In this document: piece by piece, positions 3,481 through 51,400 of the stretch
Numbering within the stretch: the first letter of the stretch is position 1
Layout of the letters: every line of letters begins with the position of its first letter
From: a virus
DNA: 64,000 nt
Reading direction: 5' to 3' (one strand)
IMG/VR virus record: IMGVR_UViG_3300045391_004554
Coordinates: 1-64,000 of that record
Translations under genes and position numbers: made by a program
Notes under the pieces: generated by a model
Databases searched by the model: none
The model's input: only the letters and a program-made list of their open reading frames with translations
Told to the model about the DNA's origin: nothing

Positions 3481-3532
3481 GGGAGTATAAACCCTATTAG
3501 GCTTAGTGCGTGCCCTTATTTAGGGCGGTCAG
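3471..3532 (+). ncRNA. Pistol ribozyme 1
   Basis: P1 ACUCC/GGAGU, loop ACUAAG pairs with CUUAGU (pseudoknot), AUAAA, GCGU, P3 GCCCU/AGGGC, G-GU-CAG; P2 has one mismatch. Confidence 0.85.
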
Positions 3533-3550
3533 TAAACAAATTTAAATCAC

Positions 3551-6225: not shown

Positions 6226-6300
6226 AGTCGGTGCAACGACTTTAAATATCTGTTAGGTTGCACGCGTGCGTACCTGTAGCTTATATTGGTACGCGGTCAG
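6226..6300 (+). ncRNA. Pistol ribozyme 4
   Basis: P1 AGUCG/CGACU, pseudoknot GUGCAA/UUGCAC, UUAAAUA, CUG/CAG, GCGU, P3 GCGUACC/GGUACGC, G-GU. Confidence 0.95.
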
Positions 6301-6315
6301 TAAATTTAAAACATC

Positions 6316-6813
6316 ATGAAAACTAACTTGCCATCTGAAATTACCTCTATTGAAGAGGCTAAAAAATTCCTATCTGAATTACATGCCAATGGGGAATCGT
6401 TTCACCCAGAGGATAACGCGCACGATATAGATTGGGATTTACCTGACGAGCAAAAGCCTGATTATATGCAGTCACGTCAACTTAATAAACTAATGTTTGA
6501 CATTTATAACCTGCCGGGTAATGATAGGAGTCATGTTAATTTAGCTTTTGATCCTTGTGATTATCTGCTTTGGTTGGATGTTAATTTTAATGACAGCAGA
6601 CTAAAGGAAGCTATTGAAAACGGCACTCTTGAAAAGTTTACTACCGAATACGAGTACGTCATCGAAAAAGGCCCAGACCCATATAATCCCTGCTATGAGT
6701 TAACACTTATTAGCGGAGATAATATAATTATGGTGCTGGAATATAACACCCGCCAAGACGCCGAGTATGATGTAGAAATATTGGAACATTGGCTAAATAT
6801 TACCGAAGCATAA
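6316..6813 (+). CDS. Hypothetical acidic early protein
   Basis: ORF after pistol 4. Confidence 0.8.
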   Translation: MKTNLPSEITSIEEAKKFLSELHANGESFHPEDNAHDIDWDLPDEQKPDYMQSRQLNKLMFDIYNLPGNDRSHVNLAFDPCDYLLWLDVNFNDSRLKEAIENGTLEKFTTEYEYVIEKGPDPYNPCYELTLISGDNIIMVLEYNTRQDAEYDVEILEHWLNITEA

Positions 6814-8046: not shown

Positions 8047-8097
8047 ATAGTGCTGCTTAAGCTTCGAGCGTTCCAACCTCTTTAGGTTGGAGATCAG
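8027..8097 (+). ncRNA. Pistol ribozyme 5 (A-U cleavage-site variant)
   Basis: P1 ACUCG/CGAGU, pseudoknot UCGGAG/CUUCGA (one G-U), AUAAAUAG, CUG/CAG, UUAAG, GCGU, P3 UCCAACCU/AGGUUGGA, G-AU. Confidence 0.92.
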
Positions 8098-8111
8098 TAA
8101 ATCATATAATC

Positions 8112-9327: not shown

Positions 9328-9390
9328 CTCCGTGCATGGAGTATAAAAATTGATTAGGGTGCACGCGTCCGGCTATATGCCGGGGTTCAG
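9327..9390 (+). ncRNA. Pistol ribozyme 6
   Basis: P1 ACUCC/GGAGU, pseudoknot GUGCAU/GUGCAC (one G-U), AUAAAAA, P2 UUGA/UCAG, GCGU, P3 CCGGC/GCCGG, G-GU. Confidence 0.92.
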
Positions 9391-9405
9391 TAAAATCAAA
9401 AAAAA

Positions 9406-40501: not shown

Positions 40502-43291
40502 TTACGTTAATGTAAATGTTTTTACTACTCCTCCAACTATTGCTTTAAAATTAGTACCGTCAAACCATAGGGTGCCATTTGTAGCACCGGTATAAGCTGC
40601 TCCAGGTGTGATAATTAAGCTGCCATATGCTGACGTTGATGCGGCAAATAAAGACGGTCCTCCTAATACACTTAATGAATAGTTCTGCAGTCCTGTATAT
40701 GTTGTAATACTGCCTACCGGAACTGTGGCTCCAGAACCTACCGGCGAGCCACCAACCAAAACAACTATTCCTAATACATCTCCTGCGGTATAGTTAATAC
40801 CGCCATCGATCAATGTAGCACTTGTTACAGAGCCGCCGCTGCAAACTACCTGTAGTACGGCATTACGCCCGGTGCCCCCCGTCACATTCGATAAAAATGT
40901 TCCTGTCGGATAGCCGCTTCCGCCCACCAATGATCCAACTGTTAAGGTAGCAATCTTTGATTTTCCAAAGGTAGGATTAATTGCCAATCCAACGAGCACG
41001 TCCCCGTTAGCCGAAGGCCGTAAACCGGAGACCATATTATATCCTATCGCAGTTGTACTTACTGATTTTGAAAGTCCGTTATGTACTATCGATCCGTCTA
41101 CACCTATAGTAAAAATGTCCCTGTACTGATTTTGCAACTCCAGAATAAATCCTGTAGATGAAAGATTACTTTGTTGAATTTTCAAGGCCGAGACCGCATC
41201 GCCAACATTTCGTCCGATAACCGTTCCGCTGGCCGAAAGACTAACAAATCCGTTTGCCAACCCCGAAAGGGAATAAATACCGGCGCCACGATAGTAACCG
41301 TCAAATGTTACGAAACCTACATTTGCCCCGTTATATTTAAAAGTCGTCACATTAGCATTTGTAGTCGTTTGATTAAAAGAAGCGCCTGTAGTGTTTGTCG
41401 TGATCGAATCTGCCACTATATCGCCGTACTCCCAGGGATTATTAATTGTTCCAGGATCATCTCCAAAATTCGGACCAGCTGGTTTAAACGTACCGGCAGC
41501 AAAATACGCGGCTTTAGCCAGTATAGCAGCATCCACATAATGCTTATTTGCTGCCTGGGCATCTGCCGTTGGATCTGCAGCAAGGTTTAGCACACCGGTC
41601 ATTGTTCCGCCAGATTTCAATAAGTATCCGGATAGAGATGTGGAAGTCAAATAAGTGGCATCAGCATATGCCTTATTTATTTTGGATAAACCCGTAAAAG
41701 ATCCGCTGACATCCGATACATAGTTATCGAGTCCGGCAGTTTGAACAGCGTAGGAAGTAAATGGTCCGATACCTATCGTAGCGCCTTGAATGATCGTAGG
41801 GATGCCGGAGTCTGTCCCTTTCCAGTTTGGCAATTGGGTGTTAGGGTTAGTACCATTATTTAGGATATTCCAGTATAAACTTGGGCTTACCTGTGGCAAC
41901 GTAAAGAACTGCCTGCTTTTGCTTTTCAGAATTTCTATACTGTAATCCTGGAATGACACTGCGCCTGACAAAAGCTTATGTCGTCCCCTTACCTCGTAAG
42001 CACCGGAAGCATTCTTTGCTACATCTATATGAAGCTCATGACTCCTTCCTGACCTGCTTATATAATCATGTGATTTATAAAGGGGTAAAAGTTCATACCA
42101 GACACCTGCTGTAGCGATTTGCGAAGGCGTAAATTTATACTCTGCAAAATATCCCTGGTTTATTGTATTATTGTCAACGCCAATAGAAAACCCTACCCAG
42201 TCTTCCCCGAATATCGATTGTACTAAGCTAAATAAAGGAAAAGTTGAATTGTTGGTTGTGCTGAAACTTACCTCTAAATATAAGATTCCATCCCCAACTG
42301 GCGAGAATGTATTCGAAATATTTACCCAGTCCAGATAACTTGTGATATTATTAGCGTCAGATACAGCACTTGTAAATTGTATCGTCCTTAAGGCCCGATA
42401 CGGTGTCTCTGTCGAATTCGTTATTGGGTTATTCGTTAGAAATAATAGACTACCATCACTAACAATATTTCCCGTTACGAGATTTTGACCTGATACCCAT
42501 GGATGATACCATTGATTATTCCGGAAGTAACCAGCATCTATAATTGCCCTGTCATTTGCATCAAAATAACTGCTATAGTCATCTAAAAATAATAAGCCCT
42601 GCGTAAACTTCAGCGTGAATGAATTCATATCAATTGTCGTATTCATAGACAACTGACCACCTAAGCCATAATATGGGAAACTAGTAACACCAATTCCATT
42701 ATTGAACTGCTCTCCCGTGATAAAATCAGCAAGTTGATTAAACGCCACCGCATCCTGCCCGGTCACTCCATTCGGAACTTGCGGAGAACTGGTAAAGGTT
42801 TTTATCCCATTGATGGTTTGATCTGAATGCGTATCAACATAATCTATAGGAGGGGGCGAACCAATCGTCACAGATGTAGGCGTGATCAACGCAGTACATA
42901 TTAAAATAGTACTGCCTGGAATTGCCGGTATCACCGGAGAGCTGGACAGGTCTCCTGATAGAAGATACAATCGATTGAACGCATCCGCATAGACAACGTC
43001 ATACCGACTTAAAGTAGGATCCTGAGCATCGAGCGCAAATGTAGTTACGGTAGATGTGCTGTATTGAAGTCTTTGTATTTGCCAAACGCCAGGTTGCACT
43101 GTCAGGTTATTTGAACCATCTACAGCTACACCGAGCCCTGAAATTATTCCGTCTGGAAGAAGGAGATTGGCGAGTTCTTCAAAACAACTTGCCTCGTCAT
43201 CAAGGGAAATAGAATCAGGCAAGGATTTGGTCCTGATCTTCTGATAGGGATAGTCGATTTTATACTGCGCTATCGCGTCAGAAAGTTGCAT
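40502..43291 (-). CDS. Tail fibre protein
   Basis: DQTINGIKTF, GGTMTG.L, AANKHYVD, GG.NY..GD motifs. Confidence 0.8.
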   Translation of the reverse strand: MQLSDAIAQYKIDYPYQKIRTKSLPDSISLDDEASCFEELANLLLPDGIISGLGVAVDGSNNLTVQPGVWQIQRLQYSTSTVTTFALDAQDPTLSRYDVVYADAFNRLYLLSGDLSSSPVIPAIPGSTILICTALITPTSVTIGSPPPIDYVDTHSDQTINGIKTFTSSPQVPNGVTGQDAVAFNQLADFITGEQFNNGIGVTSFPYYGLGGQLSMNTTIDMNSFTLKFTQGLLFLDDYSSYFDANDRAIIDAGYFRNNQWYHPWVSGQNLVTGNIVSDGSLLFLTNNPITNSTETPYRALRTIQFTSAVSDANNITSYLDWVNISNTFSPVGDGILYLEVSFSTTNNSTFPLFSLVQSIFGEDWVGFSIGVDNNTINQGYFAEYKFTPSQIATAGVWYELLPLYKSHDYISRSGRSHELHIDVAKNASGAYEVRGRHKLLSGAVSFQDYSIEILKSKSRQFFTLPQVSPSLYWNILNNGTNPNTQLPNWKGTDSGIPTIIQGATIGIGPFTSYAVQTAGLDNYVSDVSGSFTGLSKINKAYADATYLTSTSLSGYLLKSGGTMTGVLNLAADPTADAQAANKHYVDAAILAKAAYFAAGTFKPAGPNFGDDPGTINNPWEYGDIVADSITTNTTGASFNQTTTNANVTTFKYNGANVGFVTFDGYYRGAGIYSLSGLANGFVSLSASGTVIGRNVGDAVSALKIQQSNLSSTGFILELQNQYRDIFTIGVDGSIVHNGLSKSVSTTAIGYNMVSGLRPSANGDVLVGLAINPTFGKSKIATLTVGSLVGGSGYPTGTFLSNVTGGTGRNAVLQVVCSGGSVTSATLIDGGINYTAGDVLGIVVLVGGSPVGSGATVPVGSITTYTGLQNYSLSVLGGPSLFAASTSAYGSLIITPGAAYTGATNGTLWFDGTNFKAIVGGVVKTFTLT

Positions 43292-43303
43292 TGGCTCTTC
43301 GGT

Positions 43304-43621
43304 TTAAACAAATTCAATATCGAACTCTTTAACGTGAATCTTGAAATGAGAACCACCGCCATCAGGACAGCAATTACCCGCTCCAAAGCATTCATTTAGA
43401 AAATCAGTTTCCCGCATGTTTAATGTGCCGTACTCGTGGCCATCAAACCCAATAAAAAAACCGTACATCATTTTGAAGCATCGGTCTACAGGATCCCAGG
43501 TTTGTTTTTTAAGTTCGCCTTTAACGCTTACCAAGGAACAATCAATAAGAAAATCACATTCCTTTTCCAGCAATTCGCCATCTTTATAAGCAGCAGGAAA
43601 TAAAATGCTTCTCCCTTCCAT
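43304..43621 (-). CDS. Hypothetical protein
   Basis: 105-aa ORF upstream of fibre genes. Confidence 0.65.
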   Translation of the reverse strand: MEGRSILFPAAYKDGELLEKECDFLIDCSLVSVKGELKKQTWDPVDRCFKMMYGFFIGFDGHEYGTLNMRETDFLNECFGAGNCCPDGGGSHFKIHVKEFDIEFV

Positions 43622-43692
43622 TGTTCCCCGATAAAGTTAATTCAAAAGCCAATATTTTTGAAAGTGTTATCCTTTTATTGCAATTGTTTGCA

Positions 43693-44388
43693 TTACAAAG
43701 TTATACCTAAAGCAGCAGCAGTTTGAGAACCTACTTCACCATCCGCTACAAGCTGGTGAGCAATCTGGAATGTTTTCACAATTGCTGAAGTAGCTGGCCC
43801 GTATTTACCATCGACTATGATATGGTAGCCTTTGTTTAATAGCGCCTGCTGGATCTTCACCACTTCATTACCACTCATTAAAGGCGACGTAACGTAAACT
43901 ATATTCGGCTGCTCATGAGATTGAGTGATCTCATTTGTGGTATACTGTACGCCCGGCACTTTAATACCGATACTCCAACGCCTGCCAAGTGCTGTACTTT
44001 GGATAAGGCCGTATTTGGTCGAATTGGCTTCCATGGTGCCTCCTTTACCGTCAGAGAATACAATGTGCCCAATCAAACCATCTCCTCCAATACGCAGTAG
44101 ATATGCGCCCGGTGTATGAATAGCTTCGTCAATACTAATTTTAATACCCAACTGCTCAGCATCCCGCGCAAAGAAACCGGTATAAGCATCTGCGCTATGT
44201 GGAGAGCCTTTGTCGTTCGCCCATCCATAAGGAATGCCGGTGACCTGGTAAAGTACATATGACGCGAATTCCGCACAGTCAAAATTTCCACGATAATTTT
44301 CATTATCTTTTGGAACCAATACGCCCAAAACATAACCTAATCCTTTATAGGTTAAGGCTTTTTCGAATAATTCTTCCCCTGTATGCAT
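43693..44388 (-). CDS. Endolysin: NlpC/P60-like catalytic domain plus peptidoglycan-binding domain (start revised)
   Basis: FDCAEF...GHI; V..IQ.AL...GY....DG.YGP.T...VK.FQ....L.ADG.VG..T. Confidence 0.85.
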   Translation of the reverse strand: MHTGEELFEKALTYKGLGYVLGVLVPKDNENYRGNFDCAEFASYVLYQVTGIPYGWANDKGSPHSADAYTGFFARDAEQLGIKISIDEAIHTPGAYLLRIGGDGLIGHIVFSDGKGGTMEANSTKYGLIQSTALGRRWSIGIKVPGVQYTTNEITQSHEQPNIVYVTSPLMSGNEVVKIQQALLNKGYHIIVDGKYGPATSAIVKTFQIAHQLVADGEVGSQTAAALGITL

Positions 44389-44423
44389 AATGTTTTTTAT
44401 TGTAAAGCTAAAGGAAATATTAT

Positions 44424-44461
44424 AAAAAAGAAATGCCCCGCAGATCAAACAGGGCATTCTT
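44424..44461 (-). terminator. Terminator after tRNA-Met
   Basis: AATGCCC/GGGCATT stem plus T run. Confidence 0.75.
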
Positions 44462-44500
44462 CAGTAAATCAAGTAAACCTAAAATAATAACAGCACGTTG

Positions 44501-44572
44501 TAGCGGGAATCGGAATCGAACCGACGTACGACAAGGTTATGAGCCTGTCAGGAAACCAACGTCCTCCCCGCG
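44501..44572 (-). tRNA. tRNA-Met(CAT), initiator-like
   Basis: CGCGGG...CCCGCTA with unpaired C1; CTCATAA loop; GGTTCGATTCC; own TATATTTG box at 44583-44590. Confidence 0.8.
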
Positions 44573-44596
44573 ATTTATTATTCAAATATAAAAACT

Positions 44597-44755
44597 TTAT
44601 TTCATTTTGTTGCCACTGATTTTCATTAAATTTTTATTAGCCCGTTTCGCTTTATTGCTGGCATTCCTTCCACTAGATGCCAACATAGCATATGCTTCAT
44701 GTAAAGGAACTCCTTCTTTCTTAGCAATTCCTTCTCCTACTGATTTAAAACTCAT
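44597..44755 (-). CDS. Small basic phage protein (52 aa)
   Basis: MSFKSVGEGIAKKEGVPLHEAYAMLASSGRNASNKAKRANKNLMKISGNKMK. Confidence 0.6.
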   Translation of the reverse strand: MSFKSVGEGIAKKEGVPLHEAYAMLASSGRNASNKAKRANKNLMKISGNKMK

Positions 44756-44808
44756 GATTGATGCATTTGATTAGCATAAAATTCTGTAAAATATTTTACA
44801 AAACCAAG

Positions 44809-44888
44809 TCTTCCCTGAGGGATTTGAACCCTCACCCCGAAGGACGGGATTTTAAGTCCCGCGCGTCTGCCAGTTTCACCAAGGGAAG
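44809..44888 (-). tRNA. tRNA-Leu(TAA)
   Basis: CTTCCCT/AGGGAAG-A; CGGGA-CTTAAAA-TCCCG; short UUCG variable arm; GGTTCAAATCC. Confidence 0.9.
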
Positions 44889-44892
44889 TAAG

Positions 44893-44966
44893 TGGGCTGT
44901 GAAGGATTCGAACCTTCAACATCCAGATTCTAAGTCTGGCGCGACTACCAATTGCACCAACAGCCC
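44893..44966 (-). tRNA. tRNA-Leu(TAG), lacking a long variable arm
   Basis: GGGCTGT/ACAGCCC-A; CCAGA-CTTAGAA-TCTGG; 5-nt variable loop. Confidence 0.88.
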
Positions 44967-44971
44967 ATTTG

Positions 44972-45047
44972 TCTTGTGGGAGGGATTTGAACCCCCGTGA
45001 TCTCGCTTCCAGGGCGAGCTAGATAAACCGGACTCCTATACCACAAG
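44972..45047 (-). tRNA. tRNA-Pro(TGG), atypical anticodon loop
   Basis: C1-G72/A73; CTCGC-CCTGGAA-GCGAG (C33, A37); GGTTCAAATCC. Confidence 0.82.
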
Positions 45048-45051
45048 AAAT

Positions 45052-45082
45052 AAAAAACCCCTTGACTTTTTAGATCAAGGGG
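45052..45082 (-). terminator. Attenuator terminator 4 nt upstream of tRNA-Pro
   Basis: CCCCTTGA/TCAAGGGG plus T6. Confidence 0.88.
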
Positions 45083-45107
45083 CGCGTTCAGTTAATAGTT
45101 AATATGA

Positions 45108-45179
45108 TTAATCCATACTTCGCCCCTTAATGCCAGGTAACGGCAAGCCCAAGAGGTTTAATAGAGATATCTGTTTCAT
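45108..45179 (-). CDS. Leu/Pro-rich attenuator leader peptide MKQISLLNLLGLPLPGIKGRSMD
   Basis: Codons CTA, TTA, CTC, TTG, TTG, CCG, TTA, CCT at positions 6-15; contains antiterminator arm TTAAGGGGCG. Confidence 0.8.
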   Translation of the reverse strand: MKQISLLNLLGLPLPGIKGRSMD

Positions 45180-45183
45180 GACG

Positions 45184-45216
45184 CAAGTATAGTAAATTAT
45201 TTTATTAAAATGCAAA
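45184..45216 (-). promoter_or_regulatory. Bacteroidota-type promoter for the leader/tRNA operon
   Basis: TTTG (45213-45216), 21-nt spacer, TATACTTG (45184-45191); ATG 4 nt downstream; upstream terminator at about 45213-45243. Confidence 0.7.
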
Positions 45217-45326
45217 AAGCCCTGTAAATAAATACAAGGCTTTACGGTCGTCGCGCCGGGTTCCCCTTACCCTTTGACTTGGTCTGCAATTAAGCTATGC
45301 TCGATAGCGGGTTTCTGGTTATCTCT

Positions 45327-45779
45327 TTATTCTTGATCGTCCGCTTCCTGGAAAGTAAGAATATACTTTACTCCAGGCTTAAGAAAATCAATTGCTCCTT
45401 TTGCGCTGATCATCATTTCTAATGATCCGCTTGGCGTCGCTTCTGAAAACTGATTATCCTCCGTGTTTCGCTTTGAAGAATAAAGAGCATTCATTTTAAC
45501 TTTTTGATGGCCACCATAGCCATAGTTAGTTACCTCATCGCACCTGAATTTGGCACGCATACTTGGTTTTTGTTCGTCAGACATTGTTTGATTTTTTGAG
45601 CCTAAACCGGCATTGCTAAAATACCTATTTATTTCTTTTTCCAATAATAAATTTTGAGCTAACTGCTCGATCTGCCATTCTCCATAAAATATCGGGGCAT
45701 CCCTCTCAATTGCTTCCTTTAACCATGTGTAATCTTCCATACACATATAATACCAAAGCGTGACAAACAAAAAAGTCAT
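45327..45779 (-). CDS. Hypothetical phage protein (true start probably internal)
   Basis: MRAKF.C...ED.QFS.ATPSGSLEM domain in the C-terminal half. Confidence 0.65.
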   Translation of the reverse strand: MTFLFVTLWYYMCMEDYTWLKEAIERDAPIFYGEWQIEQLAQNLLLEKEINRYFSNAGLGSKNQTMSDEQKPSMRAKFRCDEVTNYGYGGHQKVKMNALYSSKRNTEDNQFSEATPSGSLEMMISAKGAIDFLKPGVKYILTFQEADDQE

Positions 45780-46048
45780 GTAAATTTACATGACTTTCAA
45801 TGGCTTTATCCGTTCCAACGTGGACTTATCCTTTATGGGCCACGCAGTGATGATCACTTCCGGCTTTCATTCCCATCAGACTCTTCGAGTTTTCCCGTAT
45901 TTATTCCTCAGCCTATGGTGCGTTCCGCGCACATACTGAATATTCACCGGTGTATACGTTTCGCCCTGAGTTTCGTTATTGTGGCACATACTCCACGCGT
46001 GTCCCCGGAACCCCGCCGCGTCTTTCAATGTACTCTACCGCCGTTGGC
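45770..46048 (-). ncRNA. Candidate ~275-nt ncRNA with own promoter and terminator
   Basis: TATATTTG at 46051-46058; AAAGTCATGTAAATTTACATGACTTT hairpin plus T run; GC-richer and no long ORF. Confidence 0.5.
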
Positions 46049-46059
46049 TTCAAATATAA

Positions 46060-46290
46060 CTAAAAACTGAATATTCCAAAGTGATCCAGCGCCCACAAAA
46101 GAAATATTAAGAAGAAAAGAGCGAACACAATAGCCTGTAAACTTGGTGACCAAAATCCTACCGTGGCCAGAACAACCCTTAACACATAAAATAATACTGC
46201 CATAATCAATAAAAAAATGAGCAGTGAAATTAACAATCCGATTAATCCGTGCATGGCTTTAAGTTTTAAGTGAATAACCTTAATAACCAA
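46060..46290 (-). CDS. Two-TM membrane protein
   Basis: Hydrophobic ORF. Confidence 0.65.
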   Translation of the reverse strand: MVIKVIHLKLKAMHGLIGLLISLLIFLLIMAVLFYVLRVVLATVGFWSPSLQAIVFALFFLIFLLWALDHFGIFSF

Positions 46291-46307
46291 TTGATTAGGT
46301 TATTGTT

Positions 46308-47258
46308 TTAACGCCAATCGATGCTGTCTTCGTTACGTTGCATAGACGAATGACGGAGATCATGTTCAAGCGCTTTTTTATTCCCAGTCCACTTATAAAG
46401 TCCATTGGCTCCGACATAAATATCTTCATACGGATCAAACCCGTGATCGCAGATAATATTCCATTTCTCTTCATACCCACGTAGATTCATTTTACCATGC
46501 CAATAGTGAATACAAATCCCATCTATATACCCCACATTTTTTTTGATAAGCTTGGCCTTTTCCTGATATTTATGGAAGGCTTTAGTTAATCCTTCAGCTG
46601 GTTTTCGGGTATTATAATAGCTATCAACATCCCCCATTAGCGCATTGCAAAGGTGGCTATCCCCACTTCCCATGATGCAGAAGTCAATTAAACCGCCTAA
46701 TTTGTCCAGAGCTTCGATAGTTGCAGACCAAGCCAATCCTGGGTGACCGAGTGCTATATTTTCACCATAAGTCCCTCTTCTTTCCTCTGGTTTAGGGAAT
46801 ATTTTGTTGCAGAAGTTAAAGAAAACGCCACCACCTATTCCTCCAAGATTGACATAATCAGGCCGAAGCCCCATAGTATAAGAGAAGAGTTGAACAACCT
46901 CGTAATGCTCTAGCGCTTCTAGAGTATCCTTTACCCAATGAACATTTGTAAACCGGACATCTGCATCTATCCAAGCTACTTTCTTAGCATCTGGAACTAA
47001 ACGTAGAAGATGTTGGATACCTAGATTGATACATTTCTCTTTATGCCATAGGTCTTGATCGCTTCTGAGTTGCAAATCAAATGGGTTACTTGGATCCGTA
47101 CATTCAAATGGACGGTCTGCGAATGCGACTTCTACTGTTATTAATACAACATCTTCCTCGCACGCAAGATATTTTTTAAATTCATGATACAGTTGGATAC
47201 GGCGACGAAAATTACGCGGATTGAATATCGGCGTAACGACATAGAGTTTTTCTGACAT
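46308..47258 (-). CDS. GT-A-fold glycosyltransferase-like protein (start revised to MSEKL)
   Basis: VVTPIFNP, WHKEK.INLG, WIDAD (DxD), GSGD, HYWHG. Confidence 0.7.
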   Translation of the reverse strand: MSEKLYVVTPIFNPRNFRRRIQLYHEFKKYLACEEDVVLITVEVAFADRPFECTDPSNPFDLQLRSDQDLWHKEKCINLGIQHLLRLVPDAKKVAWIDADVRFTNVHWVKDTLEALEHYEVVQLFSYTMGLRPDYVNLGGIGGGVFFNFCNKIFPKPEERRGTYGENIALGHPGLAWSATIEALDKLGGLIDFCIMGSGDSHLCNALMGDVDSYYNTRKPAEGLTKAFHKYQEKAKLIKKNVGYIDGICIHYWHGKMNLRGYEEKWNIICDHGFDPYEDIYVGANGLYKWTGNKKALEHDLRHSSMQRNEDSIDWR

Positions 47259-48448: not shown

Positions 48449-51400
48449 TTCTTTTTCTTTTGCAGTTCACCCTCTTTTACCAACGCGTCCAACCCATATT
48501 TTTCGATCAGTTTTGCCTTGGCAACGTTTGACGCGGTAGTCGAGGCGCGTTTGCTATCAACCCCTTTTGCCATCAACTCATTAGCGTAACTCTCTTTGAT
48601 CTTTTCATAGTATTCCTGGTGATCAGTCCCAAGCTGGATAACTTTTGAACCTACCTTTAATGGACCTGGTTTACTGATATCCTCGTAGTTTGGTTCATGA
48701 AACTTACTGGCCAATGAGAATTCTACCTGCTTCCTGATTGACTCAATAGAACGATTCAGATCCGCATCATTCATTCCTGACATGGCTAACATATTAGATA
48801 AGAAGCTGGTAGCCATTACCGATTTCTGATACGGGGTTATATTTACCGGAACACCGTACTTGTCATTATTGTTTATAAATCCGCGATAAATATCTTTCAT
48901 TAAGTCCCCGTTACCGTTCCATGCAGCACCAAGCATACCGTAGTTATTGGCATCCTGAACCTGTTGGGTCGGGCTGATATTTGGTTCATAGAAGAACTTA
49001 CTGTTAGTCAGATCATTTATTCCCCGCTGGGCCAAATCCTGCGGCGCATTCCCCAGACCGCCAAAGAAGTAATTACCCAAGGTATTGGTGTACCATTTCT
49101 GAAAAGCATCATCCTTCATTTTTTCCAGCTTTTGATCAACCTTTCCCAAAGCCTCCTGTTTTTCTTTGTCGGTACCGAACAAACTGGCAAGCGCATACGT
49201 AATGCCTCGTGTTGCCAAGGAAGTTACGCCATAACCTATTACAAGCTTTAAACCTTGGAAGAATGCCTCTTCTGTTAGAGCTCCGACCAAAGACATAGCC
49301 GCTGTCTTAGCCTCTATTTTCCGGTAGTTCTCGTCGACGAAAGTATCCTTGCTCGCCAGGGTCCTGTAGTTTTCTACCATCGTCTGGAACTTGTGCAGGT
49401 TGAACGAACCAAATGGCAGTATAAAGGCTTTCACCAGACGATCACCAAACGCACCGCTGTTCAGGAACTTCGATCTGGCAGCTTTTGTATTTTCGTTTAG
49501 TTGCTTTGAAGTCATTGACTCCGCAAATTCTGCAGCTTCCCGGTTTGGATGAGCAGCTTCTTTGGCCCAATCAATATCCTCGAATTTTTTACCTTCGGTA
49601 TCAATGATATGTTTGGCATAATAAGTCACCCATGCCCACTCGCCAGATTTAACGTCCCCCCATTTGATCGGCTTTGTGAAAAACTTTTCCTCATGGGCTC
49701 CATTCTCCTCCAGGTGTTTGAAGTACCTGTTAAAGAAACTCGTAGCCGATTTGATGTGCTGATCGACGATGTTATTTACGTCAGATATCCCTTCCAGATT
49801 AAGGGTATTTAATTGGGCCAGGTTCTCAGCACGCTCCCCGATAGCATGATCTTTCAGTAGCTTTTGAACGGACTCACTACTCATCTGCTGAATAGCCTTA
49901 TACATCAGCGGCGCATCAAATCCTGTTGTGGCCAGCGTATTAAAGATGGTGGCTCCCCCTTGCTTTGCCAGCGCAGATAAACTTAATAGCTGCTTAAAAG
50001 TACCCGCCTTGGTAATGAAGTTGAGCCCCTCCTTAACAATCCGGAGTTCCTTTTCACCCATGGTATTGTTAAGGCCCATGCTGTTGAGCACGTAGTCACG
50101 TATGGTGTTTTTGTAAAGCGTGTGATTTTCATTACCCAACGCATCGCGGAGGTCGCGATTTTTAATGGCTGAGTCAAATATCTGCCGCGCTTTTAAAGTG
50201 TGAATGTCTTCGAGCTGGTTCTTGATATTCTGATTTTGAACATCAAAGAAATTCAGGTTGAGAACCTTTTGCTTTTCGCCAGACTTGGTAGCAAGCGGAT
50301 CTCCTTTAACACGTTGCAAGGTACTTGTAGAACCCTCAGTCGTGTTTTGGTTGGTCGCAGTAAATCCCAGCTCATCAGGTCCTACCACATCGATCAAACC
50401 GGAGTTAAGGAAACGATAACCATCCCGCATATGATTGTTCCATCCCTCATAGTTTTGATTAAGCTGGCGCTCCACTACGTCGCGGTGCCTGTCTCTTAAC
50501 TGCTCATCGGCATCCCGGTAAGTATCATATATCTTCTTCTCACCCTCGTTCAGGAATGGCAAATCTTTTATGTCAGCATATTTAAGACCGGACAACTCCT
50601 GTTTATTCATTATATCAATACCGGTAGCTTCCTTTATTTTTTGGGCAAAACCATTCCATACTTCCCTTTCGATAGCCGCCTCACCATTGTCTTTTTTCAG
50701 GCCCTCTTCGCTCTTTAACGCCATATCTTTATTGATCGAACTTATACGTTTAACGAGCTCTTTATTCTGCTGATCGGGCGAAGAGAATTCCCTGTTCTGA
50801 TTAAAGTATGAATACAGAGATAGGCGCTGGATTGACTCCGGGCTATTGGCAATCTCAGGATGCTCTTTGAATATGGCATGGATCTTCTTACCTATCAGAT
50901 TATCGTACTCTTGCTTTGCTTTGGCGAAACCGTTCCTGATCTCATCGAAGTGAGTCCCGGTATTGAGTTTATTCAGGAAAGTAAAGTCATTATTGGCTAT
51001 CCTGGTCATGATCACCGATAGCGCAGCACCACGGCTTCTCAGTTCACCCAACTTTGTTTTAAACCGGCCCTCTTTAGCGCCGCGTCCTCGCTCTTCCAGG
51101 TAGTTTACCAGCTTCAAAGCTCCCTCATCACTATTGCCAATTGCCTTAGCTTCGAATATGCCTATGCCATTATGATTGTCATTCAGCAACACATTTTCCA
51201 GCACGTTATTGTATAGGCGAAGATTATCGGCAGTCTCTCCATCCAATGGTACGTTTTTTAGCGTCTCCAAACTTTCTTTTTGTTCAGGAGAAAGACCAGG
51301 ATCTTCGGTATTAATAGCATCTTGCTTAGCTTTCGCAATGTCCTCCAGGTTGTCTCGCAATGATTCCCGGTCGGAAGAGGACCCAGTTTGGATATCCTCC

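Follow-up and report, generated by a model that had tools for sequence, protein, structure and literature searches.

We analysed a window of 64,000 nucleotides (nt), that is, the first 64 kb of the IMG/VR virus record IMGVR_UViG_3300045391_004554 (100,225 bp, 41% G+C), and focused on the short leader that precedes its transfer RNA (tRNA) genes on the minus strand. We propose that this leader is a ribosome-mediated leader-peptide attenuator, which would open tRNA-Pro(UGG), tRNA-Leu(UAG), and tRNA-Leu(UAA) to transcription when ribosomes stall at its leucine (Leu) or proline (Pro) codons. Judged from the sequence, we give this reading a probability of roughly 0.55. A first-pass annotation of the window had described a minus-strand promoter, leader, antiterminator, terminator, and three tRNA genes in the layout of a leader-peptide attenuator. 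Every element was found where it had been placed, and the order of the elements, with promoterless tRNA genes behind a terminator, supports that layout. In a whole-genome search, these three were the only confident tRNAs.

At the level of the leader peptide, the composition is unusual. The leader open reading frame (ORF) encodes 23 amino acids (aa) and, as had been claimed, holds six Leu and two Pro codons within codons 6 to 15, which read in order CTA TTA AAC CTC TTG GGC TTG CCG TTA CCT. Leu and Pro together make up 12% of the residues in the long ORFs of the phage; with this background, at least eight of them in 22 residues has a binomial p of 0.003 (0.011 when the background is set at 15%). 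A Leu+Pro share of at least 8/22 is reached by 15 of 660 short ATG ORFs (2.3%). When at least eight are sought within 10 residues –a window and threshold picked after the data had been seen– the leader stands alone among the 660, and such a density occurs at four places in the six frames of the 100-kb genome. The enrichment in cognate codons expected of an attenuator is present at the amino-acid level, and Leu/Pro codons also lie outside the RNA pairing arms described below (codons 6, 7, and 13-15).

At the transcription level, the upstream gene ends in an intrinsic terminator that forms a boundary, and a new transcription unit begins after it. None of the 45 long ORFs carries a Shine-Dalgarno (SD) sequence, their upstream regions are A-rich, and TAnnTTTG boxes stand 5' of phage genes, as they do in two relatives that carry a homologue of the upstream gene (loci L100 and L102). 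Missing SD sequences together with such boxes before genes are the Bacteroidota pattern, and a host of Bacteroidota type is what these signals indicate. The leader promoter has a TTTG at -33 (45216-45213), a 21-nt spacer, and a -7 box, TATACTTG (45191-45184). In Flavobacterium, the sigma-A box TAnnTTTG lies at -12 to -5 (PMC9723704). Applied to the TATACTTG site, this position predicts a transcript start at 45179, which is the A of the leader ATG, and a leaderless messenger RNA (mRNA). The gap between box and ATG is 3 and 7 nt at the phage genes starting at 2273 and 13165, and a box 3-7 nt 5' of the ATG is also seen in L100 and L102. The short ORF has a usable start codon near the predicted transcript start, and its translation is predicted as well. 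With SD sequences missing from the phage genes as well, the missing SD is no evidence against translation of the leader, and a leaderless start would allow ribosome loading once the RNA 5' end emerges. As a separate observation, the leader frame remains open further upstream to a TTG at 45215 (35 codons), where transcripts that read through the upstream terminator could in principle begin translation.

Behind the leader, the tRNA genes have no promoter of their own, and there is neither space nor motif for one. TAnnTTTG is absent between 45130 and 45048 on the minus strand, and a promoter scan called no good sigma70 site 3' of the terminator.

At the RNA level, four segments, named r1 to r4 from 5' to 3', can form competing pairings: r1 and r2 lie within the leader ORF, whereas r3 and r4 contribute the arms of the terminator before the tRNAs. 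An antiterminator of 10 bp between TTAAGGGGCG (r2) and CGCCCCTTGA (r3) had been proposed, and we confirmed it, with one G.U pair (the duplex has 10-11 bp). Segment r3 overlaps the 5' arm of the terminator, and antiterminator and terminator are mutually exclusive. The terminator hairpin has 10 pairs, a 7-nt loop, and -15.6 kcal/mol, followed by T6-A-TTT. Its T6 ends 4 nt before tRNA-Pro, in agreement with the earlier description, and it stands between the leader and the genes to be regulated, with no promoter after it. Besides, we found a complementarity of r1 to r4 that had not been noted before. The duplex energies were -19.4 kcal/mol for r2:r3, -17.5 for r3:r4, -15.3 for r1:r4, and -11.3 for r1:r2. 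A pairing as strong as r2:r3 or stronger arose with 12 out of 5000 random segments of the genome and with 35 out of 5000 dinucleotide shuffles (p 0.002-0.007); for r1:r4, the counts were 15 and 44 of 5000, respectively (p 0.003-0.009). Each terminator arm has one complementary leader segment (r2 for r3, r1 for r4), and the full leader folds with z = -2.3. As the three strong pairings cannot coexist, the leader is a genuine alternative-structure element.

The segments also resemble each other, r1 being similar to r3 and r2 to r4. A duplicated hairpin could be their evolutionary origin; if so, the p-values for r2:r3 and r1:r4 are not independent. At another relative's locus (L101:1225-1262), the terminator after the homologous upstream gene (GAACGCCTCTTAAT...ATTAGGGGGCGTT) has arms that resemble leader r3 and r2, which may be a clue to the assembly of the switch or a mere coincidence. 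Between 43000 and 47000, Rfam searches at E<=1 gave no known RNA family besides tRNAs and chance-level matches.

The position of the leader ORF fits these structures. It spans r1 and r2, and its stop codon lies 11 nt past r2. We masked a 28-nt ribosome footprint and computed how probable each pairing is in the RNA that has been made by the time the polymerase stands on the U-tract. In this footprint model, a ribosome at the stop codon masks r2 and the terminator forms with a probability of 0.95; with the A-site at codons 6-13, r1 is masked and r2 is wholly free. This is the geometry of an attenuator: a ribosome that has reached the stop codon blocks the antiterminator and a stalled one permits it, as is seen here for stalls at codons 6-13. 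In the ribosome-free RNA, the equilibrium fold contains r2:r3 together with r1:r4. The translation-free state is plausibly off too in this model, with an r4-containing helix still abutting the U-tract.

From these elements, we propose the following switch. The host RNA polymerase would initiate at the AUG of the leaderless 23-codon ORF, from the Bacteroidota-type promoter. Under fast translation, the ribosome would reach the UAA and mask r2, r3 would pair with r4, and transcription would end at the U-tract before tRNA-Pro. Without translation, r2:r3 and r1:r4 would form, and the helix next to the U-tract would probably keep the switch off. A ribosome stalled at the Leu/Pro codons 6-13 would mask r1 and leave r2 free, so that r2:r3 would form before r4 exists; r4 would then be left without a partner and the polymerase would enter the tRNA genes. 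The newly made tRNAs would relieve the stall, closing a negative-feedback loop of tRNA supply. Defence tRNases or starvation as the trigger, and an anti-defence purpose, are speculation. Table 1 gives the positions of the elements and of their neighbours.

Table 1. Elements of the tRNA unit and neighbouring features, in window positions
Feature	Position	Strand	Evidence or remark
Conserved upstream gene, ~85 aa	45581-45327	minus	Homologues and alignment of 10 homologues
Intrinsic terminator of the ~85-aa gene	45243-45216	minus	11-pair stem and T run
Promoter, Bacteroidota-type (predicted)	45216-45184	minus	Sequence
Leader ORF, 23 codons + TAA, MKQISLLNLLGLPLPGIKGRSMD	45179-45108	minus	Stop at 45110-45108
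Candidate regulatory codons 6-15	45164-45135	minus	6 Leu (CTA, TTA, CTC, TTG, TTG, TTA) and 2 Pro (CCG, CCT)
Segment r1, leader codons 8-12, TAAACCTCTTGGGCTTG	45160-45144	minus	Pairs with r4, weakly with r2
Segment r2, antiterminator 5' arm, codons 17-20, TTAAGGGGCG	45130-45121	minus	Pairs with r3
Segment r3, CGCCCCTTGA	45084-45075	minus	Partner of r2; also terminator 5' arm
Segment r4, terminator 3' arm	45066-45057	minus	Pairs with r3 or r1
Intrinsic terminator before the tRNAs	45083-45048	minus	Stem 45083-45074 / 45066-45057, then U6-A-U3
tRNA-Pro(UGG)	45047-44971	minus	tRNA search and homologue in another phage
tRNA-Leu(UAG)	44966-44892	minus	tRNA search
tRNA-Leu(UAA)	44888-44808	minus	tRNA search
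52-codon ORF, same transcription unit	44755-44597	minus	3' of tRNA-Leu(UAA)
tRNA-Met(CAT)-like element	44572-44500	minus	ARAGORN at relaxed threshold only; weak match to the transfer-messenger RNA (tmRNA) clan
Closing terminator of the unit	44459-44431	minus	Followed by the endolysin gene

A similar design was found in other phages. In the Caulobacter phage phiCbK (JX100813), gp083 (in the stretch 49540-49791; L111:2541-2792) is annotated as a hypothetical protein of 45 aa, and it is followed by an annotated terminator and then by 14 tRNAs for Pro, Thr, Lys, Leu, His, Ala, and Ser. As many as 41 of its 45 residues belong to the set {P,T,K,L,H,A,S} (binomial ~2e-10 at 45% background). Among phiCbK, Rogue, Ccr10, and BL10, about 10 substitutions and a 3-codon insertion stay within this set or enter it, and none leaves it. 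Across 26 records, the DNA of this leader shows 92-100% identity; folding of its 3' part gave z = -4.1, with pairing over the 5' arm of the terminator. Rogue and phiCbK share an overall identity of only 62.6% (PMC3556154). A second phiCbK unit, ...YRQFVRQIQVVRNIRAGR..., stands before tRNAs for Phe, Val, Ile, Gln, Arg, and Gly. There is also a third ORF in the phiCbK-like phages, MTHLLTRYEREATGLDTTTA, located before tRNA-Glu/Asp, which matches those tRNAs poorly. The genome paper on the phiCbK-like phages does not mention attenuation (PMC3556154), and our literature search found no publication on the function of these leaders.

The other case is an unrelated viral contig that we came across by chance (L046; IMGVR_UViG_3300033121_001334, 6446-6600, minus strand). 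Its promoter, TTGACT-16-TATAGT, is separated by 6 nt from an ATG, a spacing that implies a leaderless start. The leader ORF, MNTNFNSLLCGLLLLE, has 16 codons; six of them are for Leu and represent five different codons. Directly after the stop, AGGGATGG can pair with both the Leu codons and the terminator arm, giving a 1:2/2:3/3:4 structure. The terminator lies 16 nt before tRNA-Leu(GAG), the first of five tRNA-Leu (GAG, TAG, CAA, CAG, and TAA). Taken together, this locus, the phiCbK-like units, and L046 suggest repeated origins of the design among unrelated phages.

The design is not general among phage tRNA loci. Our survey of 168 tRNAs in the fetched loci gave nine preceded by a terminator and one clear case, L046. 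A second survey covered 502 tRNAs in 116 other viral loci, which were fetched by a D-arm pattern of tRNA-Leu: 10 were preceded by a strict terminator at a distance of up to 45 nt, and a convincing matched leader was seen with none of these (one, L209, is doubtful). The combination of terminator and matched leader was thus rare. At one locus (L119), what lies between single tRNAs are ordinary small genes rather than leaders.

Apart from this second survey, several points weigh against the attenuator. The evidence at the locus is a single sequence, and the relatives fetched through flanking genes do not carry the cassette. The -7 box TATACTTG departs from the consensus at one position (C for T), and leaderless mRNAs are a minority in flavobacteria (5.5%, PMC9723704). 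The r1:r2 pairing, the classical anti-antiterminator, is at chance level, and we rejected it for that role. The Leu/Pro richness is partly forced by RNA pairing: any complement of CAAGGGG reads as Pro/Leu in two frames out of three, r1 contains three of the eight Leu/Pro codons, and the codons that lie outside r1 and r2 are only marginally enriched (5 of 13). The choice among synonymous Leu or Pro codons is not beyond chance and is uninformative. TTA, TTG, CTA, and CTG, the codons strictly read by the two phage tRNA-Leu, account for 71% of the Leu codons of the phage, and five strict anticodon matches among the six leader Leu codons are therefore expected; CCT and CTC do not strictly match the phage tRNA anticodons. 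Thus, the earlier claim that leader codons are matched to the tRNAs holds as an amino-acid enrichment, but not as a match of individual codons.

The proposed stall has its limits as well. A ribosome at codon 14 or 15 masks 3 or 6 nt of r2, respectively, so the earlier claim that stalling at Leu/Pro codons frees the antiterminator stands for codons 6-13 and not fully for codons 14-15. Moreover, the equilibrium still favors the terminator in stalled states or with r1 masked (P 0.6-0.95). Therefore, read-through would have to be kinetic, and by analogy with classical attenuators we infer a step in which r2:r3 forms before r4 is transcribed.

Among the alternatives, the main rival is a terminator that leaks or partitions independently of translation, letting a fixed fraction of polymerases pass, in which case the ORF and its Leu/Pro content would be by-products of C/U-rich arms. 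Arms of the CCYCUUGR type do encode Pro/Leu in two of three frames, the r1 share of the Leu/Pro codons fits such an origin, and so do the possible duplicated hairpin behind the likeness of r1 to r3 and r2 to r4, the lack of significant codon-level matching, and the presence of r2:r3 already in the ribosome-free fold. However, it leaves aside that the ATG lies exactly at the predicted transcript start and that the ORF covers r1 and r2 and stops shortly past r2, as an attenuator needs; that codons 6, 7, and 13-15 add Leu/Pro outside the arms; and that matched leaders recur before tRNA blocks in the phiCbK-like phages and L046. On balance, we regard a merely leaky terminator as unlikely, even if it deserves the most attention of the rivals.

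The other three alternatives are minor. The leader could be an independent tiny gene –for a hydrophobic peptide or a small RNA of ~130 nt– with the tRNAs transcribed only when polymerases coming from it, or from late transcription further upstream, happen to read through. The unit of promoter, ORF, and terminator is indeed complete, short Leu-rich peptides are typical of membrane or signal segments, and the leader start MKQIS resembles the MKNIS of a membrane protein at the same position in L101. Even so, the peptide makes a poor membrane helix, being 23 aa long, interrupted by Pro/Gly, and charged at its tail, there is no Rfam family match, and r2:r3 and r1:r4 would go unexplained, which makes the tiny gene quite improbable. 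A remnant of the L101-type membrane-protein gene (MKQIS/MKNIS) was considered and rejected, with no homologue of that gene anywhere in the genome. The alternative structures would equally suit an RNA switch that responds to a trans factor (an uncharged tRNA as in the T-box, a phage or host protein, or a small molecule), and tRNA-sensing leaders of the T-box kind do exist. We hold this to be very unlikely, given that neither the T-box nor any other leader family appears at E<=1, that there is no specifier-loop or T-box motif, and that the placement of the ORF would have no explanation. Least credible of all is a promoter hidden in the hairpin that would give the tRNAs a start of their own. There is a model for it in L024, L031, L069, L083, and L084, where the terminator CCCCTTGAC...GTCAAGGGG holds a -35 TTGACT, 17 nt, and TATAAT, 14 nt before tRNA-Ala. 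The equivalent here, TTGATC-17-TTTTAT, lacks the key A2, was not called by the scan, and would start within the tRNA, and the host-type TAnnTTTG is missing from 45130-45048. An embedded promoter of the L024 type was rejected as poor at this locus. In those loci themselves (L024:3863-3905, also L069, L083, L084, and L031), the hairpin CCCCTTGACTTTTTAGTCAAGGGG superimposes terminator and promoter before tRNA-Ala(TGC).

Regarding relatives of the locus, the tRNA cassette with its leader appears to be an insertion specific to this lineage, because all fetched loci with a homologue of the upstream gene are without downstream tRNAs. These were found through an alignment of 10 upstream-gene homologues and comprise five viral, nine metagenomic, and two genomic loci (IMG/VR, JGI metagenomes, and GTDB genomes); a scan of IMG/VR with the single upstream protein gave no match. 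The nearest homologues of the upstream protein (P0003 and P0004) show 89-90% identity and lie on contigs of 75 and 34 kb. DNA similarity to the fetched loci ends with the upstream gene. In L100-L102, the homologue is followed by a terminator and then by another protein gene; two of these three loci also have a TAnnTTTG promoter there. For four relatives, the complete records were searched for tRNAs, and no cluster was found. No sequencing run was listed as holding the stretch. A neighbouring protein of 334 aa led to one distant contig, without tRNAs, and the INPHARED phages gave only a tRNA-Leu match to Rhodococcus phage Trina and distant protein matches.

The tRNA-Pro(UGG) deserves a comment, as it combines C33 (in place of U33) with A37 and a long D loop, and was missed by the Rfam tRNA model. 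A 274-kb phage carries a homologue (L003:2791-2867) that matches it exactly in the D and anticodon arms, whereas the acceptor and T stems show compensatory changes. On the strength of this homologue, we take tRNA-Pro(UGG) to be a real and conserved phage tRNA type. Its altered anticodon loop could be relevant to nuclease evasion. In a broader proposal, the leader would be a dedicated sensor of tRNA-Leu/Pro depletion by host anticodon nucleases or other tRNA-targeting defences and would induce nuclease-resistant replacement tRNAs; such an inducible circuit of counter-defence would be one case of a widespread, as yet unpublished class of phage tRNA attenuators. We find this improbable as it stands.

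Two further observations concern the surroundings. The tRNA-Met(CAT)-like element 3' of the 52-codon ORF has an imperfect-looking acceptor stem. On the plus strand, a repeat, GGTCAGTAAA, with an A-rich tract is found about 20 nt 5' of several genes (3530-3550, 6295-6315, 8090-8111, and 9385-9405).

Phage tRNA genes are usually seen as constitutive helpers of codon usage or as anti-defence spares. If the attenuator is true, decoding speed would feed back directly on tRNA supply, and textbook attenuation would gain a new class of target genes as well as a leaderless, SD-free system of Bacteroidota type. With two amino acids, three tRNAs, and ~130 nt, the locus is a minimal test case that reporters could easily address, and it is the smallest and most readily testable example of the design.

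The first-pass annotation knew of no described phage example, and our literature search likewise turned up no publication that describes attenuators in front of tRNA genes. The T-box riboswitch binds tRNA directly, carries a conserved T-box motif, needs no ORF, and targets synthetase and amino-acid genes. It would share with the present leader a terminator/antiterminator that senses the state of a specific tRNA, but in the Rfam search of 43000-47000 (E<=1) no T-box sequence, specifier loop, or stem I was found at the leader. The closest functional analogue in the literature, the stress-induced trn tRNA operon of Anabaena PCC 7120, stays off by default and is induced under impaired translation (PMC8421152), and it is controlled by the repressor TrcR (PMC10272220). 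It is similar in being an accessory tRNA array induced by impaired translation, and different in being bacterial and controlled by a repressor; the words "attenuation", "leader", and "terminator" are absent from PMC8421152.

The phage cases come closer. The phiCbK-like units share a short ORF made of the amino acids of the downstream tRNAs, a terminator, and an alternative pairing over the 5' arm of that terminator. Their sequences are not similar to our locus, they cover seven amino acids and 14 tRNAs versus two and three here, and their leader is kept in 26 genomes, whereas our cassette has no known relatives. L046 shares the implied leaderless start, a Leu-rich leader, an antiterminator segment after or within the ORF, and a terminator before tRNA-Leu. 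It differs in its sigma70-type promoter, in sampling Leu only, in a clear 1:2 hairpin over the Leu codons, and in its unrelated sequence.

Finally, the best-known relatives in design are the leader-peptide attenuators of amino-acid operons in enterobacteria, such as leuL, trpL, hisL, pheL, thrL, and ilvL. Similar amino-acid leaders have been indicated in flavobacteria (PMC9723704). Our leader has in common with this type of attenuator a promoter-proximal ORF rich in the relevant codons, an overlapping terminator and antiterminator, regulatory codons in segment 1, and a stop codon sited for blocking the antiterminator. It would differ in that the targets are tRNAs rather than biosynthetic enzymes, that it is phage-borne and samples two amino acids, that its mRNA is predicted to be leaderless and SD-free, and that its apparent off state relies on r1:r4 in place of a strong 1:2 hairpin.

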